From Neodothiora populina (lineage: Eukaryota): a stretch of 64,000 bases of DNA. Positions 33,059 to 64,000 of the stretch are shown here, in pieces. The notes below the pieces were generated by a model. The model saw only the letters and a program-made list of their open reading frames with translations, made no database searches and had not been told where the DNA came from. A program made the position numbers and the translations under genes. How positions within the stretch are numbered: the first letter of the stretch is position 1; each line of letters starts with the position of its first letter. Location of the stretch: NCBI RefSeq assembly GCF_041146345.1, contig NW_027191407.1, forward strand, positions 186,001 through 250,000, in the 5' to 3' direction.

Positions 33059-33346
33059 GATCCTCAACTTTCGGAAGTGTAATGGCAAGTAATATATGTC
33101 CTTGTATCCGGGTGTGACCATAAAAGTAGACAATCTCGTTTCTGGGCAGCGCGTTGAGTAGGAATCAGGCGCAGAAGTACGCTACAAGTGTTGTGATTAG
33201 TGGAGTCTGCAGTAATATGTTCAGCTCGGCCAGCGGGCAGCGGCCGGCATGAAAGTGCTACAGTACCACCTACCTTAGTTGGAAGCTTCCCCAGATCAAT
33301 CGCTTAAACGTAGCCTGCCGAAAGTGGTACTTGTAATTACATGACC

Positions 33347-33370
33347 ACGCGTCGCTCGCGTCAACCGCGT
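33347..33370. promoter_or_regulatory. three MCB-like (CGCGT) elements upstream of TERT
   Basis: ACGCGT, TCGCGT and CCGCGT at 9-bp spacing, about 100 bp before the ATG. Confidence 0.5.
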
Positions 33371-33461
33371 CCATTGCATCTCAGATAGTACATCATTCCA
33401 CCTTGCCAACCTTCGCGAATGCAACGCATCTAGCCATGGTTGCCATATTACCCTTGCTACT

Positions 33462-36400
33462 ATGAAGCGCAAAAGCAGTAAGCAGGTCAAAGACACCAAC
33501 TACAACAAGCGGATCAAGGTACAGGATAATAACAGGTTATCGTCATCATCGAAGTGGCCCGTACTGCACTTATATTATATTCGCGTATCAACGCTGCGGG
33601 AGTATCTACTCTCTGAACTGGAGAGGATTGGAGCGTCCAAAGCTAGACGGCGCATCATTACATATTATGGAGCAGCGATCGAACACGAAGAAGATGTTGC
33701 TAAACTTCTAGATGAAGTTGTAGTTGGGTCGTCTGTGTCGAAGAAGGACATCGATAATCCGGAGCAAGGACAAATCGAGCTCAGTATATTCTCTCAGCAA
33801 CTGAGCGATTCTACGGGATCTGTTACAGGGCGTCTAAAGACAGCCTCCACGGTCCTGTCACAGTCAGAGGTAAGAAATGTAGTGTTTACCAAATCACATG
33901 CGACTATATGCGTGTGCTTGCATTTTCGTGAGAGAGAAAAGCACAACATCGGTGACCAGTTTTTTTCGGATGCTGAAGCAGCGTAGATTATCGATTTTAC
34001 AATATGGTCTCTCTTCAGACGACACTCTACAGCCTATAAGCCTCCACATATGTTATGTCATGGCTTTGTGTGTTCCAAGAAGATCAATCCGAACCACGTA
34101 GGAAGTGTAAACCCAACGTCCATACCAGGTATCCTGTCTCAGAGCCCTAACCAGTATGCTCAAAGATTGAAAACTGCGCCGTGGACGGCGTTGCCACCTC
34201 TACTAGGTAAAGGAAAGGAACGTCTACTTATCAATTTGTTCCTTGACTGCGGCCTATTTATTCCACTGACTAGCGGAGACGGAGATGCGAACTTCCTACA
34301 AATCAGCGGTGTGTCCAGTCTAACGTAACAACGAGGTACCGTACTGAGCCATTTCTAGGAACGCCTATGTCTGATTTGTGCCTCACGAGCTCCAACTCAA
34401 AGAATGCATGTAATGGTGCAACCCTCAATCGAGGCGATCCTGAAGTTCCAGGGACTGTCCATGAAAACGTGAAACGTGGGCTCAACGACATACGATTTGT
34501 CCGTCATCGGATGCTATACGGTAGACCAATCGCAAGCAATCGTGTGTCGGTGGAATTTGGGCTGAGGTACGTCCATGTCCTCAATCGCTGCCGCGATACC
34601 ACGAGTCGACATGAGACGGTCCACATTATGAAGTACATGTTCCCCAGGCAGTTCTCACTTCATAACGTCTTTACCTCGGATGTGGATAAAGCCAACACTT
34701 CCCAGCCCTTCAGAGACTACACCCTGAGAGAAGTAGACATCAAGCGAGCATCATTGCAAGACGGCAAAAGTGCTTCGCAAGTACCGAAGCGATTGCGCGG
34801 TTCGTGCGAGGATCTTGTCTCTAGGCTTAGACGGCGACACACACGATGCTCGTACACCTCTTTGATGAACCACTATTGTCCCGTCGAATCCCGCGCTTTA
34901 GAAGCAAAAGCGCAAGCTTTGGAGAGCAGCATGATAAGCCTCGCATCTCCGTCGGCTCAAGTAGCCGCTTTCTGTCGAAGTGTAGTGGCTAGAGTGTTCC
35001 CCAAATCATTTTGGGGGAGCGATGGCCATAATCAAGCTAAGATCATGCGCTGTATAGACCGCTTTATGGCCCTTCGCAGGTATGAGAGTATGACTCTACA
35101 TGACGTTTTGCAAGATATCAAGATTGTGGAGATATTATGGTTGGCACCCCCTAGCCAGCCGGCAGGTCACAAATTAGCATTATCTGACCTGGCTAAGAGA
35201 AAAGAGATGTTCTCGGAATTGGTTTACTATCTTTTCGATTCCTTCCTAATCCCACTAATCAGCAGCAATTTCCATGTTACAGAGTCTTCAAGCAACAGAA
35301 ACCAACTGTTCTATTTCAGGCATGACATCTGGAAGAAATTAGCAGAACCGACCCTAACAAGGATGAAGTCAACCATGTTCGAGGAGGCGGACCAAGTTGC
35401 ATTACAAAGACTCCTTGCGAGAAGAGGTTTAGGGACAAGTCAGATACGCTTACTACCGAAAGATATTGGATTAAGACCTATCATCAATTTACGAAGGAGA
35501 GTGCTCACTAGTGTAAATGGACGTACGGTGCTCAGCCGAAGCATCAACCAGATTCTAACCCCAGCATTTAACGTGCTGAATTATGAAAAGGTGAGATATC
35601 TGTGAAAGATGGTATAGATAGGAGTACAAGCTAACACTCCGAAGTCGATGTTTCCTCAACGGCTAGGCGCATCGTTGTTTTCGGTCGATGAGATATTCCC
35701 TCGTTTGCGGCAATTCCAGGATCGTCTTCAAGGCAGTGCGCATGCCGGCAAACCACTGTACTTTGCAAAACTTGATGTCCAAGCTTGTTTCGACACTATT
35801 CCACATCGGCGTCTTATAAGCCTGTTGAGTGAGCTTCTTACTTCTGAAGAATATATCCTCACGCGCTACGCGGAAGCCAAACTCCTGAATGGCGGAAAGG
35901 CCCAATCTGGTATCACGCCGAAGCCAATATGGAAGTACTCCGGCAGAGCCAGGGCGGCAGGTACAGAGCAGTCTTTCATGAATTTTGTGGAAGCAGAGGC
36001 TTCAGGAAATCGAGGAAGAGTGTTTGTCGATAGCGTTGTTGAGTCACGCGAGAATCAAGAGAAGCTTCTATTGCTCCTGCGCGAACATATCGAGAGGAAC
36101 GTCGTACAGATTGGCAAGAAGTTATACCGCCAGAAGGTCGGCATACCGCAAGGGTCAATTGTCTCAAGTCTGCTGTGCAACTTTCTGTACGCCGAGCTAG
36201 AAAGGGAAGTGTTGGGTTTTCTGAAAAATGGGCAGCATCTGCTGCTAAGACTTATTGATGACTTTCTACTGATCAGTACCGATCAACAAGTCGCCGCACG
36301 GTTTGTCAAAATCATGCATGCCGGCATTCCCAGGTACGGCTTGTCTATCAAGAGGGAGAAGACTCGTGTCAATTTTGATGTTGAGGTGGACGGTATTGCC

Positions 36401-37402
36401 GTGACTAAACTGCCTCTCGTTGCTGACTTTCCATACTGTGGCAACGCTATAAACACGGTCGACCTTCACATCAAGAAAGACGAAGCTAGACGGGAGAGGA
36501 ACAGTGAGCAACTAAGACTACCTGCTTGCTGCAAGCTTTCTGACAAAGTCATAGATATTGCAATGGCTATCACTGTCGAAGGATCCAAGACTCCCGGTCA
36601 GAACTTCTTCCGCAAGACACTCAAGTATGTGATTAGCTTCAGGTTAAGTTTGACTCATCGACTGACAAGGCATTATAGCATGCTAAAAGTGCATATGCAT
36701 GCAATGCACCTCTGTACGTCTCACAATGGTCTCGATGTAGTACTTTCAAACCTTTACAGTGCTTTTTTCGACACTGCGGAAAGATGTATACGATATATTC
36801 AAAGCCTTCCGAATGAAAAGAAACCCAGCGAGTCCTTGATAATTAGTAAGTCTGCCATTATCTGCACCAGCTCAATCTCGGCCGTGCACAAGCAGATCCT
36901 GCGAGGCTCATAGAGTATTTCGATAATAGCTGACTCGAAATGTAGGAACGATTGAAGGATTGGTAGATGTCGCATTCGGCTTGATGCAGCGTAAAAAGGT
37001 CACAGCAGCTAGCAGCACAATCCGGTACCAGTGTTCTGTCACTAGGACTCAGACAAAATGGTAAGTCCACAAGAGGAGAGCTTCAGAGTCTACGTCCGGT
37101 CATCTCATGTCGATCGAGCGGCTGGCATACACATGTTACTTTAGTACATAGGGCCATTTGACTTGTTGAGCCATCTGCACAAGAACGTAACCAGGGAAGG
37201 TGAAAACTTTCTTCCGTGGTGTCACCAGCCCCGTCACTCTGCGTACATCTCAGCATTATATAAAATGTCTCTAACATTCGCTGCCAGGTTGGCTGCTCGA
37301 GCTTTCAGCCAGACGTTTCAAGTGCGCCAAACTCGATTCATTGGCTTGTTGTTGTGGTTAGATCGCCAGTCAGCGGAGGCGGAACAGGCTTTGATAGGCT
37401 AA
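33462..37402 (+). CDS. TERT: telomerase reverse transcriptase, 8 exons, 1095 aa by my model
   Basis: Exons 33462-33869, 33987-34308, 34359-35590, 35645-36503, 36555-36624, 36679-36845, 36946-37060, 37288-37402 sum to 3288 nt, in frame. Motifs: T (FHVTE..LFYFRHDIW), 1 (IRLLPK), 2 (LRPIIN), A (FAKLDVQACFDTI), B' (GIPQGSIVSSLLC), C (LLRLIDDFL), E (PYCG). Confidence 0.95.
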
Positions 37403-42452: not shown

Positions 42453-44332
42453 ATGGTCTACGATTGGGACGATAAGCGGGAGGCATGCTACCGCATGTAT
42501 GTAGTCCAAAAATTGAGATTGGACGAGGTGATGAGGTTCTTCAAAGATGAGGGTAAGCAGCCGCGACTTCTTTGGGACCATTACTGCGTGATGCTACTTT
42601 TGGTCGACTCTAGCTAACAACAACCATCAAACAGTCGGATTCGTACCAAGGTATGCTCGCTTATGCCTTCACTTCTATATGGTCCTACGCGATCCGCAAA
42701 CGAAAAATTGGAAAATACCTTGGAAGTATGCATATTCTGACTGCAGCAGCAAGCGTGCATTCCAGACGCAATTTCGGGTAAGTTGTCTTGCGAGAAACAT
42801 TTAGTCTACTATGCCACTGTAAGGCCGTCAACAGCCAACTTGCTCCGTAGAATAACATCTTCCAGCGCTGGGGGTTTCCTAGCAAACAAAACCCCGCCCA
42901 CCGCAATGAGGCCTTAGTTGCTCGTACTCGAGAGCTATGGGAGCGCAATACGACGCAGAGGGAAATGGTCGGCATACTACAAACTGAAGGCTTCAACATC
43001 ACCGAGCGAGAACTTATGCGCCTTCGGGCAAAGCACCGTCTACTACTCAGGGGTCCTAATCGGGCCAAGGTTGAGTCTGTTGATCAAAACAATGCTCTCG
43101 ACCCAAACCTTGCCGATGAGGATGTGACGCATTTTGTAAGTCTTTTGTTATCCCTAGGTTGTCTGCTCAATAACTCATTCCATCAGCAGCCATACGAGTC
43201 ACTGCTGCCTGTAACAGCTATTGCACAAGAGGGTAAGTTGCTCAAAGACTGCTGTCAAGCGGATATTCTCATGCCGACCATGCACACTACAAGGAATTGA
43301 GCTCTGATATGCACAGGTGACATCGCTAGTGAGCGTGAACTAAGTTTCAACACAGGCGCATCTCTGAAATGTACAGAGCATCCTAGCGACCCTTTGCAAG
43401 ATGGTGAGGTCAAAGCGCCGTCAAAAAAACGTCGACGTCGCAACAACAATTGGACTGGGACACAGGGTGAGCTTTCAGAGCAGCAACGCTTTCCTTCAGA
43501 AACGACATTGGAATCCAGTAAAGTATGTTTGGGTCTTGACAACACAACACATCTGGAAGTCCGCAATATCTTCCAGTCTATCTGTCAAGAACAAGGTATC
43601 GTGAAGAAGACAGTAGTAGGGCCAGAGCGGTGGCAGGGGGCGAAGAACGAATTACTGCTGAGGCAAAGGTCGCTCAGTCAGGCATTTGAACAAGCAGAAG
43701 CTCCACTGCTCGATCAGATGCGTTTGTCGCTCGATGTGATATGCATGGATGTGACGAAACGTCTCCGAAATCTCGAGCACAAGATGACGCTCGCAGAGGC
43801 CAAGAACATGCTGAACATCAACCCAGAAGAGGGTCGTCGGCTCCGGAAAGAGCTGATAGACCTTCTCACAGCGCACAATTTCGTCAACAAATATCAGTCA
43901 GACAACTGGGAAGAGCTTCGGCAAGAGTGGCTGGCCAAGACTGGCCTCGCAGAGCGTATCCCGGCAGTCGGAAGTGCTGATCGCGCGCAGTGCCTGCGTG
44001 CCGTGCAAGCAGTGTGTCGGGACATCATGAAGCGCTGGCGAGACGCCCAGGTGTCAAAAGGCAATGGCAAGTCGCCTGAGAATTCGCGCCCGAATACAGG
44101 GAAGCGGTTACGGACAGAGGCGACGGTACAGCAGACAGGCAGCGAGGAGCAGGCCGATGCTGTCCCTTTTGTTACGAACGAGCTGGAAGACAGCTGTAAC
44201 TTCCAGATCGATCCCGAACTACTTTTAGCAGCTAAGGGATTACAGCCAGATCCCTACGGTCAGGCAACAACTAGTGGGCAGGTCGGCGAGGCTACGCTTC
44301 GTGGGGGCATGCATGCGCCGGTATACCTCTGA
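42453..44332 (+). CDS. Clr5-domain protein, many small exons
   Basis: MVYDWDDKREACYRMYV..LDEVM../GFVP/SKRAFQTQFR/RWGFPSK, then FPSETTLESSK and LDVICMDVTKRLR. Confidence 0.8.
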
Positions 44333-48921: not shown

Positions 48922-50481
48922 ATGTCTGGACCGAAGCCCGAATGGTTCATCTCGCGTGGAGCCGGAGTATACACTGCCCTCATTCCCGCGGATGAGCTCC
49001 CACGCTCTATTCAATTGAAGGGCGTCCCCCGTGTGATGGCGGTCGACGAAGTTGTGGGTATGGCCTTCGTCGCCGAGACAAGATCCGCCAGGCAATGCTT
49101 TTCTCTGGACGGGGGCCCATCTGCTGCGAGGGCTAGCCCAAGCCTTGCTTCCACCACTGCATCCGCAAGGCTACCTCATACTTCGGAGGAACCTAGTCAG
49201 AGAGTCGTGGTGGGCAAAGGCAAGGCTCCTGAAAGGGAAGACATGAGCCAAGAAAGTGAACGTTCAGCAGTAGGTCTGGAGAAATTGAGCATCTTGTATC
49301 ACGCATACTGAAGTAGTTTATAGATTGCCATAGCTTCTGCGTCACGTACCCCTACCGCTGTCATCCCAGCCAGATCCACTTTGAATCCTGTAACGCATCC
49401 TGTCGACAGTTTCCTCGTCCAACGCCCACTTCCTCCCTCAGGGCAGGAACCAGATGAGACCAAGAAGGTATACTGCTCTTATTGGATTCGCCACGGCGAT
49501 TGCGACTATATGCAGCAAGGTTGCAAGTACAAACACGAGATGCCAGGTTCCTTGGAGGAAATGAAGCCACTGGGCTTCCGCCGTTGGCCGAAATGGCGTG
49601 GCGAGGATCAAGTGGCGAACGGCTCTCGTGGCAGATCAGGCGCTTCTCGAGAAGTCAGAATAGAGAAAAGAAGTAGATTCTTCGGCCCGGACGCATCTCA
49701 AGCTCGAATTGCTCCCATCAGGGAGGGAACCGCGTTGGATGCAAGTAGTAAAATGGTTGACTATAAGGGATTTAACGAACCACATCCACGCATAATAGAG
49801 TATGGCTCAACTGATCTCCTTCATCCTCGGACTGAGGCCACCACTGCAATCGCTACTGCTGGACCAGCACGTCAGCCAGCAACACGGTCGACATCCAATA
49901 CAATCACCTCCCGAGTCGATCATGGCAGATCGTCACGTGGCGACGAAGTTGCCTTGCCGAAGAAAAGAAATGGTGGGTTGACGCTCATCGATCTTTCTGA
50001 TGCCGAAGAGGAAGAATCAGACAAGCATCTCTCCGCAGCCACACGCACTGCAGAGCGTGGAACCTCGTCTAAAGTGAAAAAACGGACCTCGCACCTCCCA
50101 TCCTTGTCCATCTCGTCCTACTCGTCGGACTCCGAAGGCACACATGGCCCACACACCCCCCAGAAAGCCGCCACGATGGCCCCCTCAGCAGCGTCCAAGG
50201 TCCCCGGCGTCTTTGTCCCTAGGGGCGAATCCTCGCACATGCATCAAGATCGATTCCGCCGCTACCAGCAGAGTCGTCCAGCTCCTAGCTCCGCACGTGG
50301 GTCTTCCTCTTCGTCTCCCGGACAGATGCTTGTCAATGGACCTGCGAAACCAAGAAATGGGACCGGTGATCAGATGGAGAAAAGGGCGATAGTAGATGAG
50401 AGTGCAGGTGGCGTTGCTAATCCACGCACAGCGCGTGGCTTGAATGCTAGTATTCATGCTAGCCCTGCTCTATCTGACTAG
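48922..50481 (+). CDS. CCCH (C3H1) zinc-finger protein, 2 exons
   Basis: N-terminal WFISR..YTALIPADELP; finger YCSYWIRHGDCDYMQQGCKYKHEMP. In-frame intron 49270-49323 removes the stop. Confidence 0.8.
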
Positions 50482-51113
50482 TATGCAACGATACATCAGG
50501 AGCAGTGGCCAAGGGCAAGCTCTCTGTTCTTTCACGATCGAGGATTTGGTACATTTGTGATGATCAAGATATCAATTGGGCTTCATGGGGGATTGTGGTT
50601 GATCTGATGGCTAGGATATGAAAGCCTTGGGCCTTCGATACTGAATGCTATCGTCGAATTCTTTTGGATGCGTGCTACATTTCGTTTTGGTGATAGACGT
50701 CTTCTACAACATTCCAACCCAAAGCTAATTGCAGAGCGAGTGATGATTGGACAATCAATAACTGAAGTCAGTTGCTTGAGAACGTGCACTATGCTTATGG
50801 ACCTTGCATACGACAGGACCTTGGTTGGCGCAGCTCACTACAAAACACTTATCCCAGCAGTCCCCTAGTAAGGTCTATTGCAACAGATAAGCCAAGCAGA
50901 CTCACAGGCTACAGACAGATAAGTATATGTATCGCCCTCATCCACATCTTGTTGTCTATTCATCAAATCCGGAAAGACTTGAGCATCATCTCTCAAGCCA
51001 AAACCTGCGCACAATTGAACTTGTGATCAGTCTGTAGATAAAACCTTTCCAACCCCAACCTCCAAGCGAGGATACAACTTTCTGCATCCTACACCTTGCA
51101 CCCACAAGGTCAG

Positions 51114-54100
51114 ATGCACTACTCGAGTTTCGTCCTGGCCTTCGTGGCCATCCAGGACTGGGTCAGCCACGGTATTGCCGTCTCTGGCTCGGTCCCTGCC
51201 TCTACTCGTGAGGCAGCCGCCAGCGCCGCCTCCCTCCCTCTTTCGCCCAATGGTTCGGTTCCCAAAAAGGGCCGAGGTGCCGCTGAGCATTGGCTGTCTG
51301 TTCACCGCAGTCCCGTTAACAGCGGTATCTTGCCTCGGGGAGCGGCTACTACGTGTTCGGTCTCCATTGCTGGCCCTGCCAGTACCTCGTCATTTTGGAT
51401 GCCTGCGATTCGCCCTTTCGAGATCTTCGCTCGGCAGGATGATGGTGAAGATGCGGCTGCTACTCCTGCTGTTGCTGTGGAGACTGTGACTATGCCTGTT
51501 CCCGAGCAGACTGGTCAGGCGAGCGATGGAGAGCAGGTTGAACCTTCCTCTACTTCTGACGAGGGAGTTGTTGCTACCGACTCTGCTCCTGCTTCGGCCT
51601 CGGCCACCACCGATCGCTCTGGCCATATGGTCATAGATCCTTCTCTCAAATGGGCTTTCGTCCCCATCCCTGACCCCAGGACAGACAACTCTTCCTCAAA
51701 TATCAACTCCACCGTGGTGCCCACAGACGATACCGGCAAGAAACTCGCCAAGATCCTCCCTGCATCTCTGCTGCCTCCCGCAGCCGTCTTTCTCGCGGGT
51801 CGCTGGGCCACTCTTCGCTGGCTGAACATCCGCACAGGAATGACAGCAGCCAAAGCCGCCGCGGACTCGTCTTCGTCTTCCTCGGTCTGGAACGCAGTCA
51901 CACATGCACTCTTTGACTCATCTGAAATGGCAGGAGTCAACGCACAAAGCGCCGACCACGCGGCGCTGATCGCCAAAACACTCGAATGGAAAATCAGGGA
52001 TGAAGCAGAGCGATACGCCGTCTTCCAGGGTGGTCCGATTCCGCATCTCAGCGACGAGACCCTCGAGGAAATAGTCCTTGACAGCGACGAAGCGGTGGCA
52101 AAATCCGTGACAGACAATGCCTGGAGAACGGAGCTGGAAACCGCGCTTCGCGGCGCCAAAAGCTCCACCACACTGGGAAATGGAGACTTGTTGCCTGGCG
52201 CTGCCGACGCCGTGCAAGGATTAAGGAAGCCCCAGGTCGCCAAAGCACCGGATCTCGAGACAATCCCTGAGGAGAATGCGGATGGTACTGGGCCTGAGTG
52301 GGCGCCTGAGCCGAGACCTGTGCCTGATCCCGTAACTGATTCCGAGTCGGAGTTGTCCGATTTCGAACCCATGCCTCAGAAGTACAATCCTGAATGGGAT
52401 GCGGACAGCGATGCTTCTGGATCCGGCGACGAAAGTCCTAGTGACGCTAAATCTCAGGACAGCAAGTCGGACGATGGCAAGTCGGATGATGGTAAATCCC
52501 AGGACAACAAGTCGGACGATGGCAAGTCAGATAATGTAAAATCAGTTGACGACAGTGACGCCGCATCTGAGAAATCCGCTCCAAAGGACGACTCTTCGTC
52601 CTCGTCGCCATCTGAGCATGAATCTCCCGGCGAGCCTTCTGATTCTGGATCGACAGGTGACGGCAGCTGGAAAACAGACGACAGTGGAAAGGACACCGGA
52701 TCCGAGTCTGGGAACGATGCTATATCGGAGAAGTCCTCCCTGAAAGACTCGTCGGCGTCACCATCTGAGCATGAATCGTCTGGCCCGTCGTCTGAGCATG
52801 AAACATCTGGCCCACCTTCTGAGCATGAATCATCTGGTGAACCTTCTGACGGTAGCTGGCAAACCGACAGCAGCGGAATAGAATCTGGATCCGAGCACAG
52901 CAAGGATGCCACCTCTGAGAAATCTTCTCCGAAAGACTCGTCGTCTCAACACGGGTCTGCCGATGAGTCTGCAGGTGAACCAGCTTCTGATTCAGGGTCA
53001 GCGGGCGATGGTAGCTGGCAAACCGACAGTGGAGAATCTGGCTCGGGAGGATATGGTTCGTCTGCTCCCGCTTCTCCGCCGGTTGCTCCTGCTGTCGCAC
53101 CACCAGTTGTCGCACCCGTGCCCATTCCACCTCCTGTCGTGCCTGTCGTTGTTCCCATTCCTCCACCCGTGGTTCCCATCCCTATTCCTGCACCTGGCTT
53201 GCCTATTCCTCTCCATATCCCTCATCCTCATATCCCTCATCCTTCTCTTGGTGATGCTCTCGGTGCGTTAAATCCTTTTGGTGGAGACGGGTCCCATGAT
53301 GATCACGATGATGATCACGACAAGAAACAGCACGGGCATCACAAGGATCATCATGACGATGACAAGAAGCATCATAAGGACCACGATGAGGACAAGAAGC
53401 ATCACCAGGATGACGACGACGGCAGGAAGAAACACGACGATGAGGACAAGAAGAAGCAGGCCGAGAAGGTCGCGGAGAAGCAAAACGACGAGCAAGAAAA
53501 GCAGCAAAAGCACGAGGATAAGGAGAAGAAGGAACAGGAGAAAGAAACGAAGAAAAAGCTCGAGGGAGAGAAGGAGAAAAAGCACGACGAAGAAAAGGAG
53601 AAAAAGCACGAAGAAGAGAAGAAGATGAAGAAAGCTCAGGAGAAAGAGCAAGAGAAGCAGGAGAAACAGAAGGAGAGAATCCTGAAACAGAAAGCCGAAG
53701 CAGACGAAAAGAAAAAGGAAAAAGAAGAGAGTAAATCCAAGAAAAAGCACCACTCATCCACTACCTCTACTTCGAGCTCACAGACCGACAAACACCACAA
53801 ATTGACCTCAGCGCCCAACGCGACCTTCACCTCGTACAAGCACGGCAAAAATCCATTGACTCTTTCCACCTCGACCACAACAACGACCAAGGGGCACAAG
53901 AAAGGCCACCACAACAACGCCCGCAGCCCAACAACCATCAAAATCGACCTCTCCATCCCCATCACACTCGAGACCGCATTCCAAACCCCCAGCATGACCA
54001 CCAAGCCCACCATAAGTACCCGTCCCTACACCACCCCCCGCTACTCCATAAGCCACGGCCGGATACACCAAAAGTACCATCACGAATTTTCATTCACGAT

Positions 54101-54599
54101 CTGGGGCGCGAACTTCTCACCCCCCAGCAAACCCACCGATGTACCAACTACCCCCAGGGAAAAAATCCTGCATGAGAAAGAACTCGCAGGGTACATCATG
54201 CCGCGCGACATGTTCGGAGCGTTAGACGCGTGCGGACAGCTGCGCCGATTCAGGTACTATGATCACGAGCACGGACTGGACTGGCCTTCGCCCAACGACA
54301 CGGCGAAGCAGGTCCATGACCGCGAGTGGCTCACACGTCCGCTTCAGCTCAGCGAGGGCGAGAAGCAGGGTTCTGAGCAGTGGTTCGATTGGGTCGCCAT
54401 GGGCGCGATGCAGATACATCTCGAGCACAAGAAGGTGTGGCCCCCACACTGGAGGTTCCAGGATGAGTGTGTTGCTGAGGCCATGGAGAGGTTGGGCGGT
54501 CCTCTCGTTAAGGTTGTCTATAATAGTTACAAGAAGCACTCGAAGCTGAGAGGCTTTTTGGGGCTGGGAGATGAGTGGAAAGACGATGTCGTTCAGTGA
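51114..54599 (+). CDS. large putatively secreted low-complexity/repeat protein, ~1160 aa, function unknown
   Basis: Uninterrupted 3.5-kb ORF with hydrophobic N-terminus MHYSSFVLAFVAI. Ser/Asp repeats, Pro, His/Asp, Lys/Glu and Thr blocks, then a globular C-terminus. Confidence 0.8.
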   Translation: MHYSSFVLAFVAIQDWVSHGIAVSGSVPASTREAAASAASLPLSPNGSVPKKGRGAAEHWLSVHRSPVNSGILPRGAATTCSVSIAGPASTSSFWMPAIRPFEIFARQDDGEDAAATPAVAVETVTMPVPEQTGQASDGEQVEPSSTSDEGVVATDSAPASASATTDRSGHMVIDPSLKWAFVPIPDPRTDNSSSNINSTVVPTDDTGKKLAKILPASLLPPAAVFLAGRWATLRWLNIRTGMTAAKAAADSSSSSSVWNAVTHALFDSSEMAGVNAQSADHAALIAKTLEWKIRDEAERYAVFQGGPIPHLSDETLEEIVLDSDEAVAKSVTDNAWRTELETALRGAKSSTTLGNGDLLPGAADAVQGLRKPQVAKAPDLETIPEENADGTGPEWAPEPRPVPDPVTDSESELSDFEPMPQKYNPEWDADSDASGSGDESPSDAKSQDSKSDDGKSDDGKSQDNKSDDGKSDNVKSVDDSDAASEKSAPKDDSSSSSPSEHESPGEPSDSGSTGDGSWKTDDSGKDTGSESGNDAISEKSSLKDSSASPSEHESSGPSSEHETSGPPSEHESSGEPSDGSWQTDSSGIESGSEHSKDATSEKSSPKDSSSQHGSADESAGEPASDSGSAGDGSWQTDSGESGSGGYGSSAPASPPVAPAVAPPVVAPVPIPPPVVPVVVPIPPPVVPIPIPAPGLPIPLHIPHPHIPHPSLGDALGALNPFGGDGSHDDHDDDHDKKQHGHHKDHHDDDKKHHKDHDEDKKHHQDDDDGRKKHDDEDKKKQAEKVAEKQNDEQEKQQKHEDKEKKEQEKETKKKLEGEKEKKHDEEKEKKHEEEKKMKKAQEKEQEKQEKQKERILKQKAEADEKKKEKEESKSKKKHHSSTTSTSSSQTDKHHKLTSAPNATFTSYKHGKNPLTLSTSTTTTTKGHKKGHHNNARSPTTIKIDLSIPITLETAFQTPSMTTKPTISTRPYTTPRYSISHGRIHQKYHHEFSFTIWGANFSPPSKPTDVPTTPREKILHEKELAGYIMPRDMFGALDACGQLRRFRYYDHEHGLDWPSPNDTAKQVHDREWLTRPLQLSEGEKQGSEQWFDWVAMGAMQIHLEHKKVWPPHWRFQDECVAEAMERLGGPLVKVVYNSYKKHSKLRGFLGLGDEWKDDVVQ
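52464..53040 (+). repeat. nested coding repeats: 15-bp KSDDG units, three ~45-63 aa units and 21-bp SEHE(S/T)SG units
   Basis: Large units start at about 52557, 52716 and 52905 (DAxSEKSxxKD...DGSW(K/Q)TD). Confidence 0.85.
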
Positions 54600-55163: not shown

Positions 55164-57113
55164 TCACATGGAAGTCCGCATCGTGACACATGCTGGTTCG
55201 CTCCAACCGACGCTCCACCTGACACTGCCCATTATGATAGTCATCACCCCCAATCCAACAAGGAGACTGACGACGCCGTACACGTAGGCGTGTCGTCGCC
55301 GCAACCCTTGCAGTTCCGCAACCCACGTACTCACTGTAGTCAAGCATCCGCAGAACCCATCCATTGTGCCTTGAAGCACCTGGCAGCCTACTCGTCCACC
55401 GCCAATCATGCCCCCGACCGACAATAGCGAGATGTGCTGGATGTCGTAGCACATGGCTTCTATTGCGCAGCCGAAGATGTTGACGGTGAAAGTACCGAGG
55501 GGAAAAGAGCTCAAGATCGGATTGAGCTTGATGGAGGCCACATAACGCAACAGACACCCCAGGGGAGCGAATACCAAGGCGAACAGCACCTCGCCTCGCC
55601 ATACCTCGTTTGCCCAGGTGCCTCGTGACGAAGGCCCACTCGGTCGATCAGGAGGCCAGATCGCGAGAAAGACTGCACCTAGCCAAGCGAGCGGCGCTAT
55701 CACAAGCACAATTCTGTCTAAGAAATTGCGAATGAACCTGAAAGGCAATGTGGGTGTCCATGGGTCCAACGCGATAGCTATATGCGCACCGACGAACAAA
55801 GCGCCGAGGGATAGAGCCACTGTATACAACATGACAGCAAGAAGAGCAAGGAAAGAATAGCCTCCATTGCGGTGCACGGTAGAGGTGAAAGAAGGGGCAG
55901 CGCCCGCCGTGTACGGGTGATTGACCGGCGTAGGTAGGTTGTTAGAGAGAGCGAGGAAAACGTCGCGCTGGAAAGACGAGAATGAGGTAAAAGATCCACA
56001 GAATCCAGTAGCTAGGCCGATGTATAAGGGAATAGACTTTTTGACCTTGGCATGGTTCTTGCGGGCGGCTGCTTCATCGTAATCTTCGTACGCGGTCTGT
56101 TTCTCCCGTAAGACAGAATGGCGGGAAACATTCCCCCATTCTTCGCGGAAGACACGTCTATCCTCGGAAAGAAAGCCCATGAATAGAGATCCGGCGACAT
56201 TAGCCCACGTCACAGAGGTAACGAGTGGCGCACCAGGATAGAATGTCAGCCATTGCATTCCCAACCGTGCCAGTGTTCCGAGGATAGAGAAGCAGATCAA
56301 GTAGGAATAGGTGTACAACGTGGTAGCGAGGCTGGACAGCGGTGGCAATGTTGACTCAGTTCCAGAGAAACTTTGTCTTCTCGCAAACGAAGGCGGCGGC
56401 AGCGCGGATTGCTGTGAATGATCAAGAGACTGACGATCGTCCTCCATATGGCGATGCATCTCCCATCCAGAAGTGTCACTCCTATCTTGGACAGGTTCGG
56501 GAGCATCAAGCTCGTCGAGGCCACTAGGGCCAGGATCGTGCGGTGAGCGAGTGGTGGCCGGGGCGGTCTTCTTGGACAGCCACTTGCCCGTGCTCGGTCT
56601 CGAATGCTCTTCCTCTCCATCTTCGTCGCTGTGTTCGACGTCCCCCCATGCCATCGGTACTGTGTCATCTCCGCCGCCACGTGAGATTGGAGCAGGCACG
56701 GCGGATCCGCTCTCATCTCCTGATCCATGTCCGGATACTCTCTTCTCTCGGCTTTTTCTCTTCTGCGATCTTCCTCTTGCGAGATTGGAAGCTCCTCTTG
56801 GCGGCGCTTCGATGTACGACTGCCGCTCTATGCTTGGAGTCCCTATACGCGAGGGCGCAGCAGGAGGAGTCAGGTCATGCTCATCCTCGGGGACTCGGGA
56901 GGAGGGCTGGTGGCTGCGAATGCTGGCACCGCTGGCTGGTCGCGTGCGTGATGGACCAGCGACGTCGGTATTCTGCTGTTGATAACGATCATGACCCGAA
57001 TGTGGCCTGAGGTGGTTCTGGGAGGAGGACGGTGTGGAACCAGCGCCCTCAGGCTGCGGAGTGGACCGGCGGACAGCCTTTGCGTCGAGGCTTGACATAG
57101 AGGACTCGACCAT
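55164..57113 (-). CDS. FEX1: fluoride export channel (tandem CrcB/Fluc domains)
   Basis: FSILGTLAR, WANVAGSLFMG, GLATGFCGSFTSFSSF, PLGTFTVN, DGFCGCLTTVSTW. Long disordered N-terminus. Confidence 0.92.
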   Translation of the reverse strand: MVESSMSSLDAKAVRRSTPQPEGAGSTPSSSQNHLRPHSGHDRYQQQNTDVAGPSRTRPASGASIRSHQPSSRVPEDEHDLTPPAAPSRIGTPSIERQSYIEAPPRGASNLARGRSQKRKSREKRVSGHGSGDESGSAVPAPISRGGGDDTVPMAWGDVEHSDEDGEEEHSRPSTGKWLSKKTAPATTRSPHDPGPSGLDELDAPEPVQDRSDTSGWEMHRHMEDDRQSLDHSQQSALPPPSFARRQSFSGTESTLPPLSSLATTLYTYSYLICFSILGTLARLGMQWLTFYPGAPLVTSVTWANVAGSLFMGFLSEDRRVFREEWGNVSRHSVLREKQTAYEDYDEAAARKNHAKVKKSIPLYIGLATGFCGSFTSFSSFQRDVFLALSNNLPTPVNHPYTAGAAPSFTSTVHRNGGYSFLALLAVMLYTVALSLGALFVGAHIAIALDPWTPTLPFRFIRNFLDRIVLVIAPLAWLGAVFLAIWPPDRPSGPSSRGTWANEVWRGEVLFALVFAPLGCLLRYVASIKLNPILSSFPLGTFTVNIFGCAIEAMCYDIQHISLLSVGGMIGGGRVGCQVLQGTMDGFCGCLTTVSTWVAELQGLRRRHAYVYGVVSLLVGLGVMTIIMGSVRWSVGWSEPACVTMRTSM

Positions 57114-58220
57114 CGCTTGGTTGATTGCTGTTTTGGCCTTGTTTATTTATTATCGTCCATGCGCCCGACAAGCGGGGCTTACCACGACAGTCCCATGGAG
57201 CAGTATATGTTGGATCAATGCGCCGACCAGAGCGGAAGACTCAGGCACACACAAAAAGCATACAATATCAGTACTTTAGTATAAACACCTTGGGAGTTTT
57301 GGTGGTCAGTGCGGCGAACAGTGTACTGTACTTGTACCTTGCCGTAGCGTGTGCATCCTGTATCTGCGTTGGGTTTGGATTCCACACGCTTGCACTAAAA
57401 CAGATCAGGTGATTGTATAACTACGGATCGGTCCGAGCATTTGGAGAGATCTCCAACTGTTGCATTTTGTGGATGAACCTGTGGATCTTGTGGATCTCTT
57501 TTCAGCCTTGATCAGCTGCCGAGAGCCGGATAGGAAGAGTCCATCAAACACTATTCACTAAGGTAACCACATTGTCTATTGTAGTTCCGACGTCTGGAAT
57601 ACTTGCCTCATTGAGCGACATCGCTTACTAAAGCACAGAGTCGTATGTAGTATGAAACTATGCACTTCTCTATGGGGGAAGAGATTGGCTCAAATTCACG
57701 AAGGGTAATCCGTCACCGCCGTCTTCAGAGGCCTTTGCTTTCCAATTGAGGATTCGCGTATTCAAGTAGCAATTACTGAACATATTTGTACCAAACCTCA
57801 CATGTTATATGAGTTCTGCTGGACCATAGCTCAAGCATAAGGTAAGGTAATTAAGGTAAGGTACCTTATGCTTTAAACACTTAAAGCGTGTGACGGCTTC
57901 GAGTCGCGTATAGCATGGTCCAAGCTCGAATCCGCAGCTTCTACCAGGACGACTAATTTCGTGCACAGATCATCGTTACCTCTGGACGGTCGTCCCTCCC
58001 TGATCTGATGCATGCCATGTCACTTTTCGTCGTACTTGAGTGAACCCATGATAACAAAAGCGATGAGAAGACTTTGTTAATCCAAGAGACCGACTGTGTC
58101 CGCTGAATTTCTTCATACAATAAGACTACCACTCCGAATATAGCCGGTCGCGAACGGATATAGTGCACGCACAATGAGGTCAGTTTGCGAACATCCGGGT
58201 AACATACACATAATACTAAT

Positions 58221-58764
58221 ATGTCGTAGGTAGCTTTGCGATGTTGAGCAACAGAATTTGTATCGTGGACTGACATTGAAGTACAGTGACAAATTCTTGA
58301 ACACTGTCGTGGACACTGTCCCGATATCTTATACGACCCCTCAATTTCCCGCCCTCTATTGGCCTTTCCCAATAGGAGGTACACAAGTGTCCTACCTCTA
58401 CCACTCTGCAGACATTTATCGATATACGTTTTTATGGACATATATCACTGTTGTTGGTATACATGTCATCGCCGCGTTGTATGCATGTCTCATCCAATGG
58501 AGAAACTGGAAGGTCATATGGACAGTCCCAATTGTCTATATACTCATCGGAGGCATCGAAGCCACCATTGCTGGAAATGTGGTTGGTGGACTGTAAGTTG
58601 CGCTGATCTCTGGATAGTCACGAATTCGCTGACACGCTGTTAGTCTGGGCGGAGTCTATAGCTCTGCTTCATTTCGCATGTCAACGTGGATACCATTCGC
58701 ATGGGGGGTTGTCAATGCATTGGTTCTAGTGCTATCCTCGTTTGCACTACAAGGTGGCATGTAA
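58221..58764 (+). CDS. small integral membrane protein (TMEM170-like), 3 exons
   Basis: MS/DKF..FPALYWP..YLYHSADIYRYTFLWT..IAGNVVGGL/LGGVYSSASFRMSTWIPFAWG..QGGM*. Introns 58226-58286 and 58593-58642. Confidence 0.82.
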
Positions 58765-59417
58765 TGATATCAGTTCTGTCTTCCCTTGAAATTGCATTGG
58801 AATTAAATAATGCCTCGTTCGCTTACAACACATCTGTTCACTTGTGGATGAATTGATATGATCTCAGGTACAATTAATGCATTCAGGCCTATTCACAAAG
58901 AGATTTGGGGTGAAGTGGATGAAAATACATCCGATATCTGGTAAAGCAATTTTTATTGTCAAGCTTGCTGAACCAGAACTCTATGAACGTTGTGGCTTTA
59001 TTTGCCATCATTGCGATGGGCAACCCACAATTCCCAACTTTAGGTCATAGTCCTGATGCAGACAGACCCGAGGACTCAAACTAAACAGAAACCGACAGCC
59101 AGTAGTCGGTCTAAAAAGCCCGTACAGAAGCTTCAACCCAGACGAAATCATTCCTAATTCAAACGTATTCCCAAGATCAACCCAAATCCAAATAAGACCA
59201 TAACAATGGTATGAACAACGGCAATCGGAGGGATATCTCGGACGACGATGTCGCTTGAGAGACTTGACAGAGCGCCTTCTCAATCTGCTGAGATCCCCAC
59301 CAAGAGAGTGTAATTAGCCGTCTGGTCTGACTCATTGTCGACCGTTGCCAGTCCTGTTGATGGTCCTCAATAACAAAACTCCTAAACTTCCAACAGTACG
59401 CCGGACTCCGAACCAAT

Positions 59418-61322
59418 TTATTGAGCACAGCCGTTGGGACACTGGCTTTCTTGATCGAGCTCAGTGCCACAATCATTGGTGCACATCTGCCGGTAGATCT
59501 CGTGCTTCAATCCCTTCCTTATCCCACGACGCTTGGGATTAGGAGCTTTCTCCCCCTTCTCCTCGGCCTCTCCATGTGCCCTCTTCCGCCCCCGAGTCCC
59601 GTTTGCCTGGGCTCCTGGCTTGGGCCTTGTGTAATCTCCGACGTAGTCGAAATTCTCCCCGATCGCCGGGAGAGGAACACCACTGTAAGTGGGCAATTGT
59701 CTGGCATCGGCCTCCCTGTAATATGAGACCACGCCGTATTCCCTCTCCATCCACATGATGGGCCACTTCATCTTGATCAAGCCGTTGGGCCTGAATTTGT
59801 GGTTGGCTATCTGTGGCCCTAGGAGCAGGCGGTCGACCGACTCCTCTCCAGCTTGACGATCCCCCTTTGGGATAACCTTTTTGCTCTCGCCGGGAGCCGG
59901 AGGCGCGGCTTTCTCCCGGTATATGGATCCTCCCAGATGTTGACGCTCGGGAGTCCAAGCGATGTTGTCGGTCCATCGGCTCACCGGCTGCTGGGACCTT
60001 GGCAGGACTTTGCCTGCTTCGCGCTCCTCTTTCGTGGGGACCAGGAAGACGTAAACGTCCCCACTCTTAATGTTGCAGGGCTTCTGGCGTCCCGCGAATA
60101 AATGTTTGCCCTGAGTAGGGTCATTGCAATGCACGACCAACTGTCGCGCGGCAATGGGGCCATCAATCATCGTTCTGGTACATGTGGGCAGTTGACGATC
60201 TCCTCCACGAGCTGTACCAGAACGTGAAGGGTGTTGAGAGGCTGAAGACGAGGAAGCACGTCCAGGCTCTGCTGAGGGTGCATGAGCTGAAGGCATGGAC
60301 CCCTCCGATCTTTCGATTGCTGCCCCGATTGCTGCATCGTTGCGCCAGCTTCCCATCATCTCGTCGTTCTCATCAAGGGGAGGATAAATGCTCCTGATGG
60401 AGTCCCCATTCTTGTTGTTGACACCACCACGTAATGTCGAGGTGATGTTGGTGTCTTCCAGATTGAAGGGCATGGAAGAAGATGAAGCCATTGCAGGCAC
60501 GGAAGAAGAAGAAAAAGCTACCTCGGGCGCATTGATTGCTGCTAGAAGTGAGGCAGCAAGCTCCGCATCTCCACCTTGTAGGAAATCTCGAGTAGCCACT
60601 GGCTGCTCGCTTGGACAGGCGGAGACTTCATCTTTCGCTATTGGCCAGTCTAAGAGGATCAAGGGCCCCCGGCTCTCGAGATCGAACTCCCCGTTTTGGA
60701 TGCTCTCTATGAAGGCATCAAACTTATTGACTCGACCGACCAGGCTAGCAGGGTTCTCTTCGTACGCCTCGACGGGGGCTTCACCGCTCGATTGGGGCAC
60801 GGCAGGTAGTGGTATGTTGTCTTGGAGCGACGCAGGCTCGCCGTTGATGGTGCCTGTTGCGTCAGGCCCCTGGAAGTTGAATTGAGGCTCGACATCCCAC
60901 ATGTCGAATTGGTATGTTTCGTCCCCGAGCAGGGGGAAGTGCATGTCTGGGAATGGCACTTCATTCTCGACGAAAGATGATAGCATGTCTGGGAATGTCA
61001 TTTCATGCTCGGGGACAGGTGAGAGCATGGCTGGGAATGCCATTCCACCCATGAGATTGTCCTGTCTGCCTTGAGCATTGAAGGCATGGAACAGGTTGGC
61101 GGAAGCGGAGACTGGAGGCTGCTCAAGCTCTGTGCCCAGCCCTGAACCCAGCTTTAAGAGCTCTAGGTTGATGTCATCCATGAGGTTGAAGGAGAGGGCC
61201 GTGTTGGATGCCTCCTCTCCTTGCCGGCTGAAGTCTGCAGCCAGAAATCTTGGGTCGATGATGGTGCACTCCACCGACGTGTGAGCCCGTGCTTCGGCGT
61301 TGGTCGATGAAGAGCAAGACAT
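59418..61322 (-). CDS. divergent Gti1/Pac2 (WOPR)-domain putative transcription factor
   Basis: 634-aa ORF with IKSGDVYVF, SRWTDNIAWTPER, IYRE, FRPNGLIK and VVSYYREAD in WOPR block order, plus a basic NLS-like tail. Confidence 0.72.
   Translation of the reverse strand: MSCSSSTNAEARAHTSVECTIIDPRFLAADFSRQGEEASNTALSFNLMDDINLELLKLGSGLGTELEQPPVSASANLFHAFNAQGRQDNLMGGMAFPAMLSPVPEHEMTFPDMLSSFVENEVPFPDMHFPLLGDETYQFDMWDVEPQFNFQGPDATGTINGEPASLQDNIPLPAVPQSSGEAPVEAYEENPASLVGRVNKFDAFIESIQNGEFDLESRGPLILLDWPIAKDEVSACPSEQPVATRDFLQGGDAELAASLLAAINAPEVAFSSSSVPAMASSSSMPFNLEDTNITSTLRGGVNNKNGDSIRSIYPPLDENDEMMGSWRNDAAIGAAIERSEGSMPSAHAPSAEPGRASSSSASQHPSRSGTARGGDRQLPTCTRTMIDGPIAARQLVVHCNDPTQGKHLFAGRQKPCNIKSGDVYVFLVPTKEEREAGKVLPRSQQPVSRWTDNIAWTPERQHLGGSIYREKAAPPAPGESKKVIPKGDRQAGEESVDRLLLGPQIANHKFRPNGLIKMKWPIMWMEREYGVVSYYREADARQLPTYSGVPLPAIGENFDYVGDYTRPKPGAQANGTRGRKRAHGEAEEKGEKAPNPKRRGIRKGLKHEIYRQMCTNDCGTELDQESQCPNGCAQ
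60941..61043. repeat. 42-bp-period coding tandem repeat, ~2.5 copies
   Basis: gcatg(t/g)ctgggaatg recurs at 60941, 60983 and 61025. Confidence 0.8.
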
Positions 61323-63267
61323 GATCTACGTGATGGATCAGTATGCATGTTTCGATGCCAGGATCTCGATGGAGGACTTACAGATTTGATTGATGTCTCG
61401 AGGTCTTTCGAGGGATTGACTAGTGTCAAACACGAATGTGCTTGAGATCTTGAGAGGTATGTGATGCAGTTCCTTCTCTCTATGCTTTGAGGCCTGATGC
61501 CCGGAAAGCTTTGCTTGTCTTGGATGCTTGGATGTACTTGAAAGCTTTGCTTGTCTTTGGATACTTTGATTCTTGAGGGTTTTTCGGATGGTTTGAATGC
61601 TTTTGGTTCTTGAAGTGGTTGAACGCTTTTTGGTTCTTGTTTGACAGGGCTGGTTTTTCAATTCCTTGGTGTTCTTGAATAAGAATGCTTGAGTTCTTGA
61701 TGGAATTGAGATGTGGTAGATGAGATCTATGAAGAAGAAGGGGAACATGGAATCATCGCAGCTTATAAGTGAGAAATTGACAGAGTCACATCCACTAATC
61801 ATCACACTGACAGACACCAACCCCTCTCGTTTGCCTAGTATGAACGAATTCTCATGTCTATTTCGATCGAACCTCGATCGGTCCCCCCTTACCGCCATTG
61901 CCTGCTTCATTATCTCAGGCAGGAGAAGACGCAAAAACACCAGGAAAGTCGCGATAGATAGCGCTGGTCTGGCCTCGACACAGTCACCGCAAATCAACAG
62001 CATGGTGTCGATGATATGCCTCTTCTTTGGCCTCAATCGGTGGACTTGAATTGAAAGGACACAGGAGCGTTGTGTGTCGAAGTTTTCAGAACACCATCAC
62101 TACGCGCTAGCTAGCCATCGTCAGCTTATCCACAGCTCGTCGATAGGTTCGACTGCAACAAGCTGGCCCTTGACTCCGCTCGATCCCGAAGTAGAAACAA
62201 CTCAGCCAACAGCCGCATACCCTTTAGAACTGCCCCTGGCGCACTCCAATCGACTCCCAGTACCCGAATCATCATCAATTCCGTCTCAAAAGAAGCATAC
62301 AACGACATACTCGAGACGATACTCGACTGTGTGCGATTTCCAGCGACTGATTCGACCAACGAATCGAGGAGAGGACTACAGGCGGTAGCCATCGATCTCG
62401 AGGTGCCGTATTGTGTGCAGCAAAGAATGGCGTCAACGAAGTCGAGTCTCAACGCCGACCTCCGTGAGACTCCACCTCTCACGTCACAAAGTCACTTCAC
62501 AATGTCGCAGCTCTGACCTCGACAATGGACACAATACACAACTGAGAATGAGCCTATGCCTCAATCTTCCATCAATCTAAACAATTTCATTAACAAAAAG
62601 TCTATATTCCACTCCTAAACCATCTTTAAACGCATCTCCAACACAAATATCAAAGAAACCATGATAAACCTATTTAGCGACCACAAGCAACACAAAGTGA
62701 GGTGCGAATAGAGATAAGAATAAGAATTCCCTAGCGCTGACCTGCACCCCAGGTAATCAGGATTCTCGGGCCCACGCTAGTTTAAAAGGATGAAGATTTG
62801 CGTCGCCCACCCCCTGAGAGCGTTCACTTAACTTAGCTGGTGGCTGTGCTGTGCTGTGCGGACCGGACCTGCGCTCCGGACTCCCCTGCTTGGCGGTGCG
62901 TTATTGGGTTGCATACTCGCATTCGATTTTTGCAGCGACTGGCAGCGGGGAGCTCGCTCGCCTGGTGCGCGACTGCATGTGAAGTGCCAAGGCAAGGACT
63001 GCCAGGCCGCCGCGTCAGGCTGTAAGGCAGCCGGCTTAGACCGTGATGCAGCGGCGTCAGGCTTCGAAGAGCTCTTGCAAGATCAAGATGGGATATAGGC
63101 AGGATCGAGTATGGAATTGGTTCTATAATACCACAAAATTTCATCAAGACATAAATTGCGTATGTACTACTATCCTCAAATCCCATCGTTGGTATTCCTT
63201 CGACAGATAATGCCAACATCAATGTCCTTATAACGTTTTGTCCATCACTTTTGTTCTACGCAAGTAT

Positions 63268-64000
63268 TCATTGCCCATTGTCGGGAGGCACCTCCTCGTC
63301 CCACCATCTATCTACAGACTGGTCCACAGCACGCTCATCGAGCGCCATCAGTCGTCGCTCCCCACAGAACCCGCCTGGTTGAGCCGTGCGCTTCACACTC
63401 TCGAATCTACCCCTCAAGTTCCCTGTATGCATCCAGTCGTCGTCCTTGAATGTCCATAAACGATCAGTCACCTCCTCGCCCACCTCTTGTAGCCTACGTG
63501 GATTGTGTTGTGGATTTCCAGCAAGCCAGTCGTGTATGCGATGGAAGGGAATGGAGACACGCTCGAAGCGTCTGGCGAAGCGAAGGTGCTCGAGTGTCTG
63601 CCGATCGGGCGCTACTCTGATATAAGGGTTCATGTAGATCCCAGAATCTTCCGCTTCGCCAGCCTCTTTCTTGTTGTTCTCATCGCCCACACGGAACGCC
63701 AGGTCGGCGAGCGCAAGGCAACATTCGGATGCTTCCCAGTATGTGTCCGTGCTTACGCGAAAACGGACAGGCGATGTCGGTCGTGATGGTACAGCCGGGA
63801 TATGGCGATGCAGCTTCTGAGTCGACGTATCTGTGTCCAGGTGCCAATTGAGGTTCATGTCGACGTCGGGATGATAGTCGACGACGGAGGAGGACGTCGA
63901 TTTCACTCCGGTGATTGTCGTGGGCGTGTTCGAGGCGAGAGTAGATGGTGACATAACAGTTCCGTTGTGATCGTTTGCTGAATCTGGCGGAGGCATACTC
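63268..64000 (-). CDS. 3' part of a GT69 (CAP59/CMT1-like) alpha-1,3-mannosyltransferase; gene starts beyond the window
   Basis: VRFR..WEASECCLALADL..IYMNPYIRVA, PQHNPRRL and GGFCGER resemble the GT69 C-terminal motifs. The frame is open to the window end. Confidence 0.72.
   Translation of the reverse strand, partial: SMPPPDSANDHNGTVMSPSTLASNTPTTITGVKSTSSSVVDYHPDVDMNLNWHLDTDTSTQKLHRHIPAVPSRPTSPVRFRVSTDTYWEASECCLALADLAFRVGDENNKKEAGEAEDSGIYMNPYIRVAPDRQTLEHLRFARRFERVSIPFHRIHDWLAGNPQHNPRRLQEVGEEVTDRLWTFKDDDWMHTGNLRGRFESVKRTAQPGGFCGERRLMALDERAVDQSVDRWWDEEVPPDNGQ

Follow-up and report, generated by a model that had tools for sequence, protein, structure and literature searches.

P0001, a strongly diverged WOPR-family protein with a late domain and a C-terminal cysteine module in Neodothiora populina

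In fungi, WOPR proteins act as master switches for shape, effector expression and virulence. They are described as two clades with N-terminal domains (PMC3364952; PMC13729134; PMC4917244), and a 2021 review calls the N-terminal domain and its DNA target highly conserved and states that for Gti1 or Pac2 no significant duplication or loss has been reported (PMC8232033). In a 64,000-nucleotide stretch of the Neodothiora populina genome (contig NW_027191407.1; hereafter the window, whose positions give all coordinates), a preliminary description made from the sequence had singled out one gene as an extra, strongly diverged WOPR paralogue with inverted architecture. Here we analyse its product, P0001, which we find to be a WOPR-family protein and neither a Gti1 nor a Pac2 orthologue. 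We assign a rough probability of 0.55 to the reading that P0001 belongs to a small, fast-evolving third WOPR subfamily, for which the Gti1/Wor1/Sge1 branch is the most likely source, and activates transcription by binding DNA with a shifted specificity. The two-clade picture would be contradicted by such a subfamily, reversed in architecture and equipped with one more conserved module; no third WOPR clade or P0001-type design was found in the literature searched, a scope that left most subscription journals and supplements outside.

A third WOPR gene beside Gti1 and Pac2

The coding part of the gene comprises the following features.

59418 to 61322, minus strand: coding sequence of P0001, a single open frame of 634 amino acids (aa) from ATG to TAA
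60195 to 61322, minus strand: acidic region, aa 1-376, rich in aromatic residues, Leu and Met, net charge -36, a candidate activation domain
60917 to 61047, minus strand: a 42-nt (14-aa) unit repeated about three times within the acidic region, from a repeat search
59907 to 60191, minus strand: WOPRa, aa 378-472; its first helix/RRP motif is degenerate, and about 12-15 aa are inserted ahead of the recognition loop
59943 to 59978, minus strand: recognition-loop core R449-W-T-D452-x3-W456-x3-R460, kept, with K448S, G453N, S457T and S459E changed
59925 to 59927, minus strand: Ser466 marker; 160 of 166 other WOPR proteins have Leu here
59802 to 59906, minus strand: linker in which the Gti1-type motifs PGEKK and R-x-L-x-G survive as remnants, from alignment
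59643 to 59801, minus strand: WOPRb, aa 508-560, keeping F510, G514-L515-x-K517 and S533-Y-Y, with K-T-x-S at 518-521 replaced by M-K-W-P
59421 to 59543, minus strand: C-terminal module, aa 594-634, with a basic NPKRR patch (candidate nuclear localisation signal) and Cys614/618/628/632 (candidate metal site)

P0001 matches Pfam PF09729 (Gti1_Pac2) with E 1e-6 and 29.4 bits, above the curated cut-off of 23.6, and the other subfamily members introduced below score 54.9-90.3 bits; the top-ranked clusters among its Atlas features are Gti1/Pac2 (0.93). The WOPR domain covers aa 378-560 (window 60191-59643), with the WOPRa and WOPRb boxes in the expected order and a linker between them. The WOPR identity proposed in the preliminary description is thereby borne out, and the six motifs that it quoted are all present, in the quoted order, in the 634-aa open reading frame (ORF) at 59418-61322 on the minus strand. 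Its account of the layout was likewise accurate: the domain follows about 375 acidic and Ser-rich residues (15% D+E, 5% K+R and 12% Ser over the N-terminal 376 residues, with no Pfam match in aa 1-376), KRWT is replaced by SRWT and WSPSR by WTPER.

An AlphaFold2 model of aa 370-634 was built on a 67-row alignment, made of the 5 members, the 2 own canonical genes, 43 of 58 trimmed metagenome domains and 17 short hits, and reached a mean predicted local distance difference test (pLDDT) score of 70.4; in it the domain is folded and the spacer disordered. Foldseek searches with this model returned WOPR structures only at E<=0.001 (four chains). In VIA-align the model, which was guided by a WOPR alignment, superposed on the two structures that the preliminary description had named for comparison, Wor1 (4qtj_A, Z 12.7, root-mean-square deviation 2.4, 123 residues aligned) and YHR177W (4m8b_R, Z 12.4); the next best match after the WOPR chains was Ssr4 (Z 5.8). 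A single-sequence search of P0001 against solved structures gave no hits at E<=10.

A WOPR family search of the genome itself (G000; 24 Mb, 18 contigs) gave at least five matches at at least three loci, namely C1 (211 bits), C3 (129 bits) and the P0001 locus. The C1 gene is canonical Gti1-type and the C3 gene Pac2-type, both with N-terminal domains; we take these clade labels to follow from familiar motifs and from hits that carry names, among them P0009, annotated Sge1. Among the proteins close to that of C1, the named ones belong to Saxophila, Meristemomyces and Aureobasidium. All 71 conserved columns (those with conservation of 85% or more in 62 non-member rows, in which the canonical proteins are mostly Gti1-type) are kept by the C1 gene, so P0001 is not the genome's single Gti1-clade gene. 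P0001 itself matches its own Gti1 weakly (E 6e-4 and 0.009) and its own Pac2 not at all at E<=1, and in a three-way alignment it is 33% identical to Gti1 and 28% to Pac2, with Pac2 represented by one sequence. P0001 is a third WOPR copy besides canonical Gti1 and Pac2: the extra paralogue claimed in the preliminary description stands, and P0001 did not turn out to be the ordinary Gti1 or Pac2 orthologue of its lineage, given that C1 and C3 fill those roles.

Subfamily members, shared residues and the C-terminal tail

The P0001 domain was searched exhaustively with phmmer against 1.84 billion representatives; 136 hits reached E<=0.001, the majority of them canonical WOPR proteins. The top hit (E 5.5e-9), P0004 (KAF1344448.1 from Delphinella strobiligena, Dothideales), is a domain-only fragment that is 64% identical to P0136 (463 aa), which together with P0006 (432 aa) has the P0001 layout of acidic N-terminus, late domain, basic patch and terminal cysteines. 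A profile search (12 hits among 8000 scored candidates) added P0147 (545 aa), 80% identical to P0006. P0006, P0136 and P0147 are unnamed Logan records. The five proteins fall into three lineages, P0001, P0006/P0147 and P0136/P0004, with domain identities of about 31-37% between P0001 and the other members and likewise between lineages, and the range seen so far is Dothideomycetidae. A word-index search with aa 370-570 gave none among 490 candidates, and word-index searching missed P0136 despite its presence in the query alignment (16 hits among 5134 candidates), which makes the family size a lower bound. A metagenome scan kept 80 of 158 relatives, with WSPSR in 80 of 80 and the Cys tail in none, and no P0001 relative was found among 48 candidates in viral contigs. 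The searches also returned other strongly diverged WOPR proteins with N-terminal domains, P0035, P0044, P0046, P0073, P0076 and P0085, the last from Trichocladium antarcticum.

The five members share residues that other WOPR proteins lack. Position 466 is Ser in five of five members and in none of 166 other WOPR proteins (one further protein was not scorable), and the second Ser of WSPSR (S459) is lost in all five, with Glu in three, and kept in 164 of 165 others. Invariant in all five are G421, R449-W-T-D452, W456, R460, Y-R-E 468-470, F510, G514-L515, K517 and Y534-Y535. That R-W-T-D, W456, R460, YRE, GL-x-K and YY do not vary despite the low identity between lineages points to selection acting on the surface they form.

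The C-terminal tail carries the signature N[PS]KR..C-x3/4-C-x9/11-CP[ND]G[CH]xQ. Among 172 WOPR proteins fetched, C-x3/4-C-x8-11-C-P-x-G-[CH] occurs in four, which are the four full-length members, and each ends two residues later in Gln, so that the module in P0001 stops two residues past its last Cys. Three of the candidate ligand cysteines are invariant in all four and the fourth is C/H (His in P0006/P0147). The last 45 aa of P0001 scored 60, 63 and 77 against the three homologues, values reached by none of 5000 shuffles each, and at best 37 against 167 other whole proteins. Searches of the tail found nothing above noise in Pfam and no usable hit in the Atlas, and no second copy of the tail was found in the N. 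populina genome. Judging by the ligand spacing, the tail may bind zinc. It presumably resembles a zinc ribbon or knuckle, with two spaced Cys pairs and Pro/Gly in the second knuckle, from which it differs in its spacing, C-x3/4-C-x9/11-C-x3-[CH].

Because of the tail and the shared residues, P0001 and the other members very probably form one homologous subfamily; the tree is not the basis of this conclusion. With the tail excluded, the P0001 domain scored 72.2 bits in a leave-one-out test on a profile of the other four members, and control profiles reached at most 65.7 (40 random) and 65.1 (20 divergent-WOPR), values to be read with the caveat that the members and most controls were originally found using P0001. 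In a domain tree of 56 rows (56 of 169 cut domains) the five members form one clade (94/87) that lies inside Gti1 (88/92), and the remaining members still join in three trees from which one lineage was dropped (81, 96, 73). Remnants of Gti1-type motifs in the linker suggest, with uncertainty, an origin from the Gti1 branch. The "lineage-specific" of the preliminary description is too narrow if the species was meant, with the architecture and tail present in at least two other diverged lineages. That description had also missed both the C-terminal basic and four-cysteine module (aa 594-634) and an intron-like signal at 61381-61326.

DNA binding, regulation and competing explanations

WOPR proteins are described as using a deeply inserted arginine to read the minor groove (PMC13729134), with a DxxxW motif as the support of the recognition loop (PMC9252788). 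P0001 keeps the loop core and has lost or changed the RRP-x-x-x-ER motif, S459 and the K-T-x-S of WOPRb. We take R449 to be the minor-groove arginine. Given a kept core and altered flanking positions, changed DNA specificity is plausible.

Ahead of the domain, acid-flanked F/W/Y/L residues number 17 in P0001 and 4-25 in the members, vs 0 before and 0-2 after the domain in the own Gti1 and Pac2 (2 after in Gti1), and the N-termini of P0006, P0147 and P0136 have net charges of -12, -35 and -35. The 42-nt repeat unit at 60917-61047 encodes a 14-aa acidic/hydrophobic unit, and the N-terminus of P0147 is about 113 residues longer than that of P0006; the acidic region therefore appears to expand and contract.

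The preliminary description had suggested release from control by protein kinase A (PKA). Among the five members RWT is preceded by S, A, K, T and D, whereas 163 of 165 other proteins have K or R there; the PKA consensus is broken in P0001 and in four of the five members, and no [RK][RK]x[ST] site was found in the whole of P0001. This reading is weak, because P0006 keeps KRWT, the Thr of RWT is invariant across the five members, and the corresponding Thr of Fgp1 is needed for activity, T67A being described as abolishing function (PMC10149712). Release is one of two readings, and loss of the kinase site could equally lower activity.

These elements can be joined in a proposed mechanism. P0001 would enter the nucleus through the basic patches RKR 579 and PKRR 596 and dock on DNA through the kept loop residues R449, D452-x3-W456 and R460, and its changed flanking contacts (S459E, loss of RRP-x-x-x-ER, K-T-x-S to M-K-W-P) would lead it to a variant Wor1 site or to the same core, more weakly bound. 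Activation would come from the acidic, aromatic-rich N-terminus and not from a canonical Gln/Pro/Ser-rich C-terminus, and the Cys4/Cys3His tip would form a small zinc knuckle making an extra partner or DNA contact that offsets the worn domain. Provided that the members are one homologous subfamily, a sequence-specific DNA-binding activator is a likely role for them. The fuller picture of an old third WOPR clade in Dothideomycetidae with a new DNA motif, an acidic activation domain in front and an undescribed C-terminal metal-binding knuckle is tentative; if true, it would be the first natural change of WOPR specificity, in a family whose binding site is said to be conserved throughout the fungi. 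The fast evolution of P0001 prompts the guess that its role is narrow and stage-specific. The subfamily would offer natural variants for asking which residues determine WOPR specificity and how the KRWT Thr functions without a kinase consensus, and this value would fall sharply if P0001 neither binds DNA nor is expressed.

A number of results weigh against a third subfamily with shifted specificity. The structural WOPR match should not be taken as independent, because the model's input alignment was WOPR-rich and biases the model toward the WOPR fold. The five-member clade is not starred, long branches meet in it, its bootstrap is not settled and its attachment point moves between trees. Approximately unbiased (AU) tests on 30 rows reject no placement tried, including P0001 with its own Gti1 (p 0.58, that tree being 2.3 log units better) and with its own Pac2 (p 0.46); of the phylogeny that the preliminary description had proposed as a check, the clade was recovered and a firm placement was not. 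P0001 keeps 32 of the 71 conserved columns, the fewest of the five members (34-42 in the others), and its own Pac2 keeps 43. Between P0006 and P0147 the identities of domain (83%), tail (81%) and N-terminus (76%) differ only slightly. Taken by itself, the tail pair P0006-P0136 falls short of significance (p 0.07), and the fold of the tail is unsettled, a hairpin with pLDDT 71-75 in the model of aa 370-634 vs a helix with 56 in the tail alone. The N-termini are not alignable between lineages (p 0.08-0.89) and share composition only. Finally, in Wor1, for which 15 DNA-contact residues are described, Thr210, named as critical for DNA binding, corresponds to Pro521 in P0001 by structural alignment with a numbering offset; this change alone would not imply new specificity, because Ros1 differs at the same position yet is described as binding the Wor1 consensus (PMC4917244).

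The tolerance of Ros1 leads to the explanation that survives best beside ours, which we consider unlikely: the subfamily would be the same, still recognising the canonical WOPR site and, at the promoters of Gti1, competing with it or replacing it in particular stages, with novelty confined to the effector modules. It agrees with the invariance of the recognition-loop core in five of five members and with the binding sites of all characterised WOPR proteins, described as conserved (PMC4917244; PMC8232033), but it leaves unexplained why the members share the replacement of S459, so widely kept elsewhere, and why the K-T-x-S of WOPRb and the RRP motif are altered.

It is improbable that the WOPR fold serves as a scaffold without specific DNA binding, with P0001 working through its acidic region and Cys tip as an adaptor to chromatin or a partner. 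Within the same fold group, relatives lacking DNA-binding support are described, and a scaffold of this kind has been proposed for Ssr4 (PMC9252788); both the few conserved columns left in P0001 and the insertion of about 12-15 aa directly before the recognition loop would fit such a role. However, the residues that survive in all members concentrate in the loop and its DxxxW support, and the domain of P0001 is basic (28 K+R vs 19 D+E).

A recent, relaxed duplicate of the own Gti1 heading to decay, with its likeness to the other members due to long-branch convergence, is a very improbable source of P0001. The AU test leaves its grouping with the own Gti1 unrejected, P0001 has the longest or second-longest end branch, and its closest relative among the 1.84 billion representatives is no nearer than the top phmmer hit. 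Its gene also has the lowest observed-to-expected CpG ratio (0.72) and the highest (CA+TG)/(AC+GT) ratio (1.61) relative to 27 reference ORFs, a CpG depletion that may reflect a mostly silent gene and CpG methylation in the past. On the other hand, the C-terminal module and Ser466 are common to other lineages and absent from the own Gti1, and the gene has no stop inside its 634 codons (the longest open stretch in 2000 shuffled versions was 240 codons), has kept its intron-like signal and, with its surroundings over 4.5 kb, is unique in the genome, with no DNA similarity anywhere else.

That a mobile element carries the gene as cargo or supplied it by domestication, which would account for its patchy distribution (none of the 80 metagenome loci kept) and fits the transposon links ascribed to the WRKY/GCM1 fold group through a clan link (PMC9252788), is more improbable still, given its single copy, its unique flanks, the lack of long terminal repeats in 57200-64000, its ordinary neighbours (a CrcB-like and a TMEM170-like gene to one side, a CAP59-like gene and DAP3 to the other), its host-like codon use and the lack of viral-contig relatives.

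The locus and its comparison with known systems

Further features of the locus lie outside the coding sequence.

61326 to 61381, minus strand: predicted intron of 56 nt in the 5' untranslated region (5'-UTR), with GTAAGT donor, CTGAT branch site and TAG acceptor
61382 to 61770, minus strand: inferred promoter and 5'-UTR, low confidence, from TATAA, pyrimidine tract and leader composition
61767-61763, minus strand: TATAA, part of the inferred promoter, low confidence
near 61746-61731, minus strand: pyrimidine tract in the inferred promoter region, low confidence
61504-61521 and 61540-61557, minus strand: 18-nt direct repeat in an A-rich, G-poor leader, from strand composition and repeat search
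55164-57146, minus strand: neighbouring fluoride exporter of the CrcB/Fluc type, its N-terminus extended by a long charged stretch
63268-64000 (L090 268-2291), minus strand: CAP59-like mannosyltransferase gene, upstream on the same strand as the WOPR gene

Codon use of the P0001 gene lies inside the range of the 27 reference ORFs, with GC content at third codon positions of 0.59 and codon bias close to their median. No pattern of repeat-induced point mutation was found in the gene, where TpA/ApT is low. The intron-like signal upstream has its acceptor end 3 nt before the ATG, and its GTAAGT..CTGAT..TAG pattern occurs nine times in the window (eight distinct donors) vs 0.94 expected from 100 shuffles; the signal at 61381-61326 is therefore probably a 5'-UTR intron. 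An upstream coding exon joined through this intron was considered and rejected, the in-frame upstream stretch being without an ATG. A retrocopy origin of P0001 was dropped, given that the own Gti1 and Pac2 are likewise single open frames. In a synteny check the neighbouring genes turned up solely at loci of the own genome. The single sequencing run considered, X1, is probably DNA; it gave no contig over the gene and speaks neither for nor against expression. The WOPR core site TTAAAGTTT does not occur in the window, and there is therefore no hint of control through canonical WOPR sites. Both exact 18-nt repeats (61504-61557, inferred 5'-UTR) contain the palindrome AAAGCTTT, which is otherwise absent from the window.

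Elsewhere in the window, all on the plus strand, are a telomerase reverse transcriptase gene of several exons (33345-36913; Telomerase_RBD, RVT_1), an ORF with two Tri-helical domain (PF24465) stretches (43301-44332), an ORF of 385 aa that has a CCCH-like motif close to the start and no Pfam match at E<=0.01 (49324-50481), and an 1185-aa ORF with a signal-peptide-like start, Ser/Asp repeats, and Pro-rich and Lys/Glu/His-rich tracts, with no Pfam match (51042-54599).

Among known systems, the Gti1/Wor1/Ryp1/Sge1 clade, with C. albicans Wor1 (4QTJ/4QTK) and S. cerevisiae YHR177W (4M8B), has the same WOPRa-linker-WOPRb order and predicted fold as P0001, and the likeness extends to the R-W-T-D-x3-W loop, YRE, GL-x-K, SYY and the remnants of PGEKK and R-x-L-x-G; the single-exon coding sequence is shared with Fgp1. 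In contrast to that clade, whose WOPR box is N-terminal, the domain of P0001 begins at aa 378, and where canonical Gti1/Wor1 proteins have a Gln/Pro/Ser-rich C-terminus, P0001 has an acidic N-terminal region and a C-terminal Cys module. Canonical KRWTDG and WSPSR read SRWTDN and WTPER, RRP and K-T-x-S are lost, identity is about 30%, and P0001 is present beside a canonical Gti1 gene. The Pac2/Pth2 clade belongs to the same domain family and P0001 is likewise a non-Wor1 paralogue, with the own Pac2 separate on C3. P0006, P0147 and P0136 share with P0001 the late WOPR domain, the acidic N-terminus and the Cys module, although their N-termini, of 176-289 aa, are unalignable with that of P0001. 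Together with P0004, whose domain-only annotation confines the comparison to the domain, they also have the Ser marker and have lost the WSPSR Ser, as in P0001.

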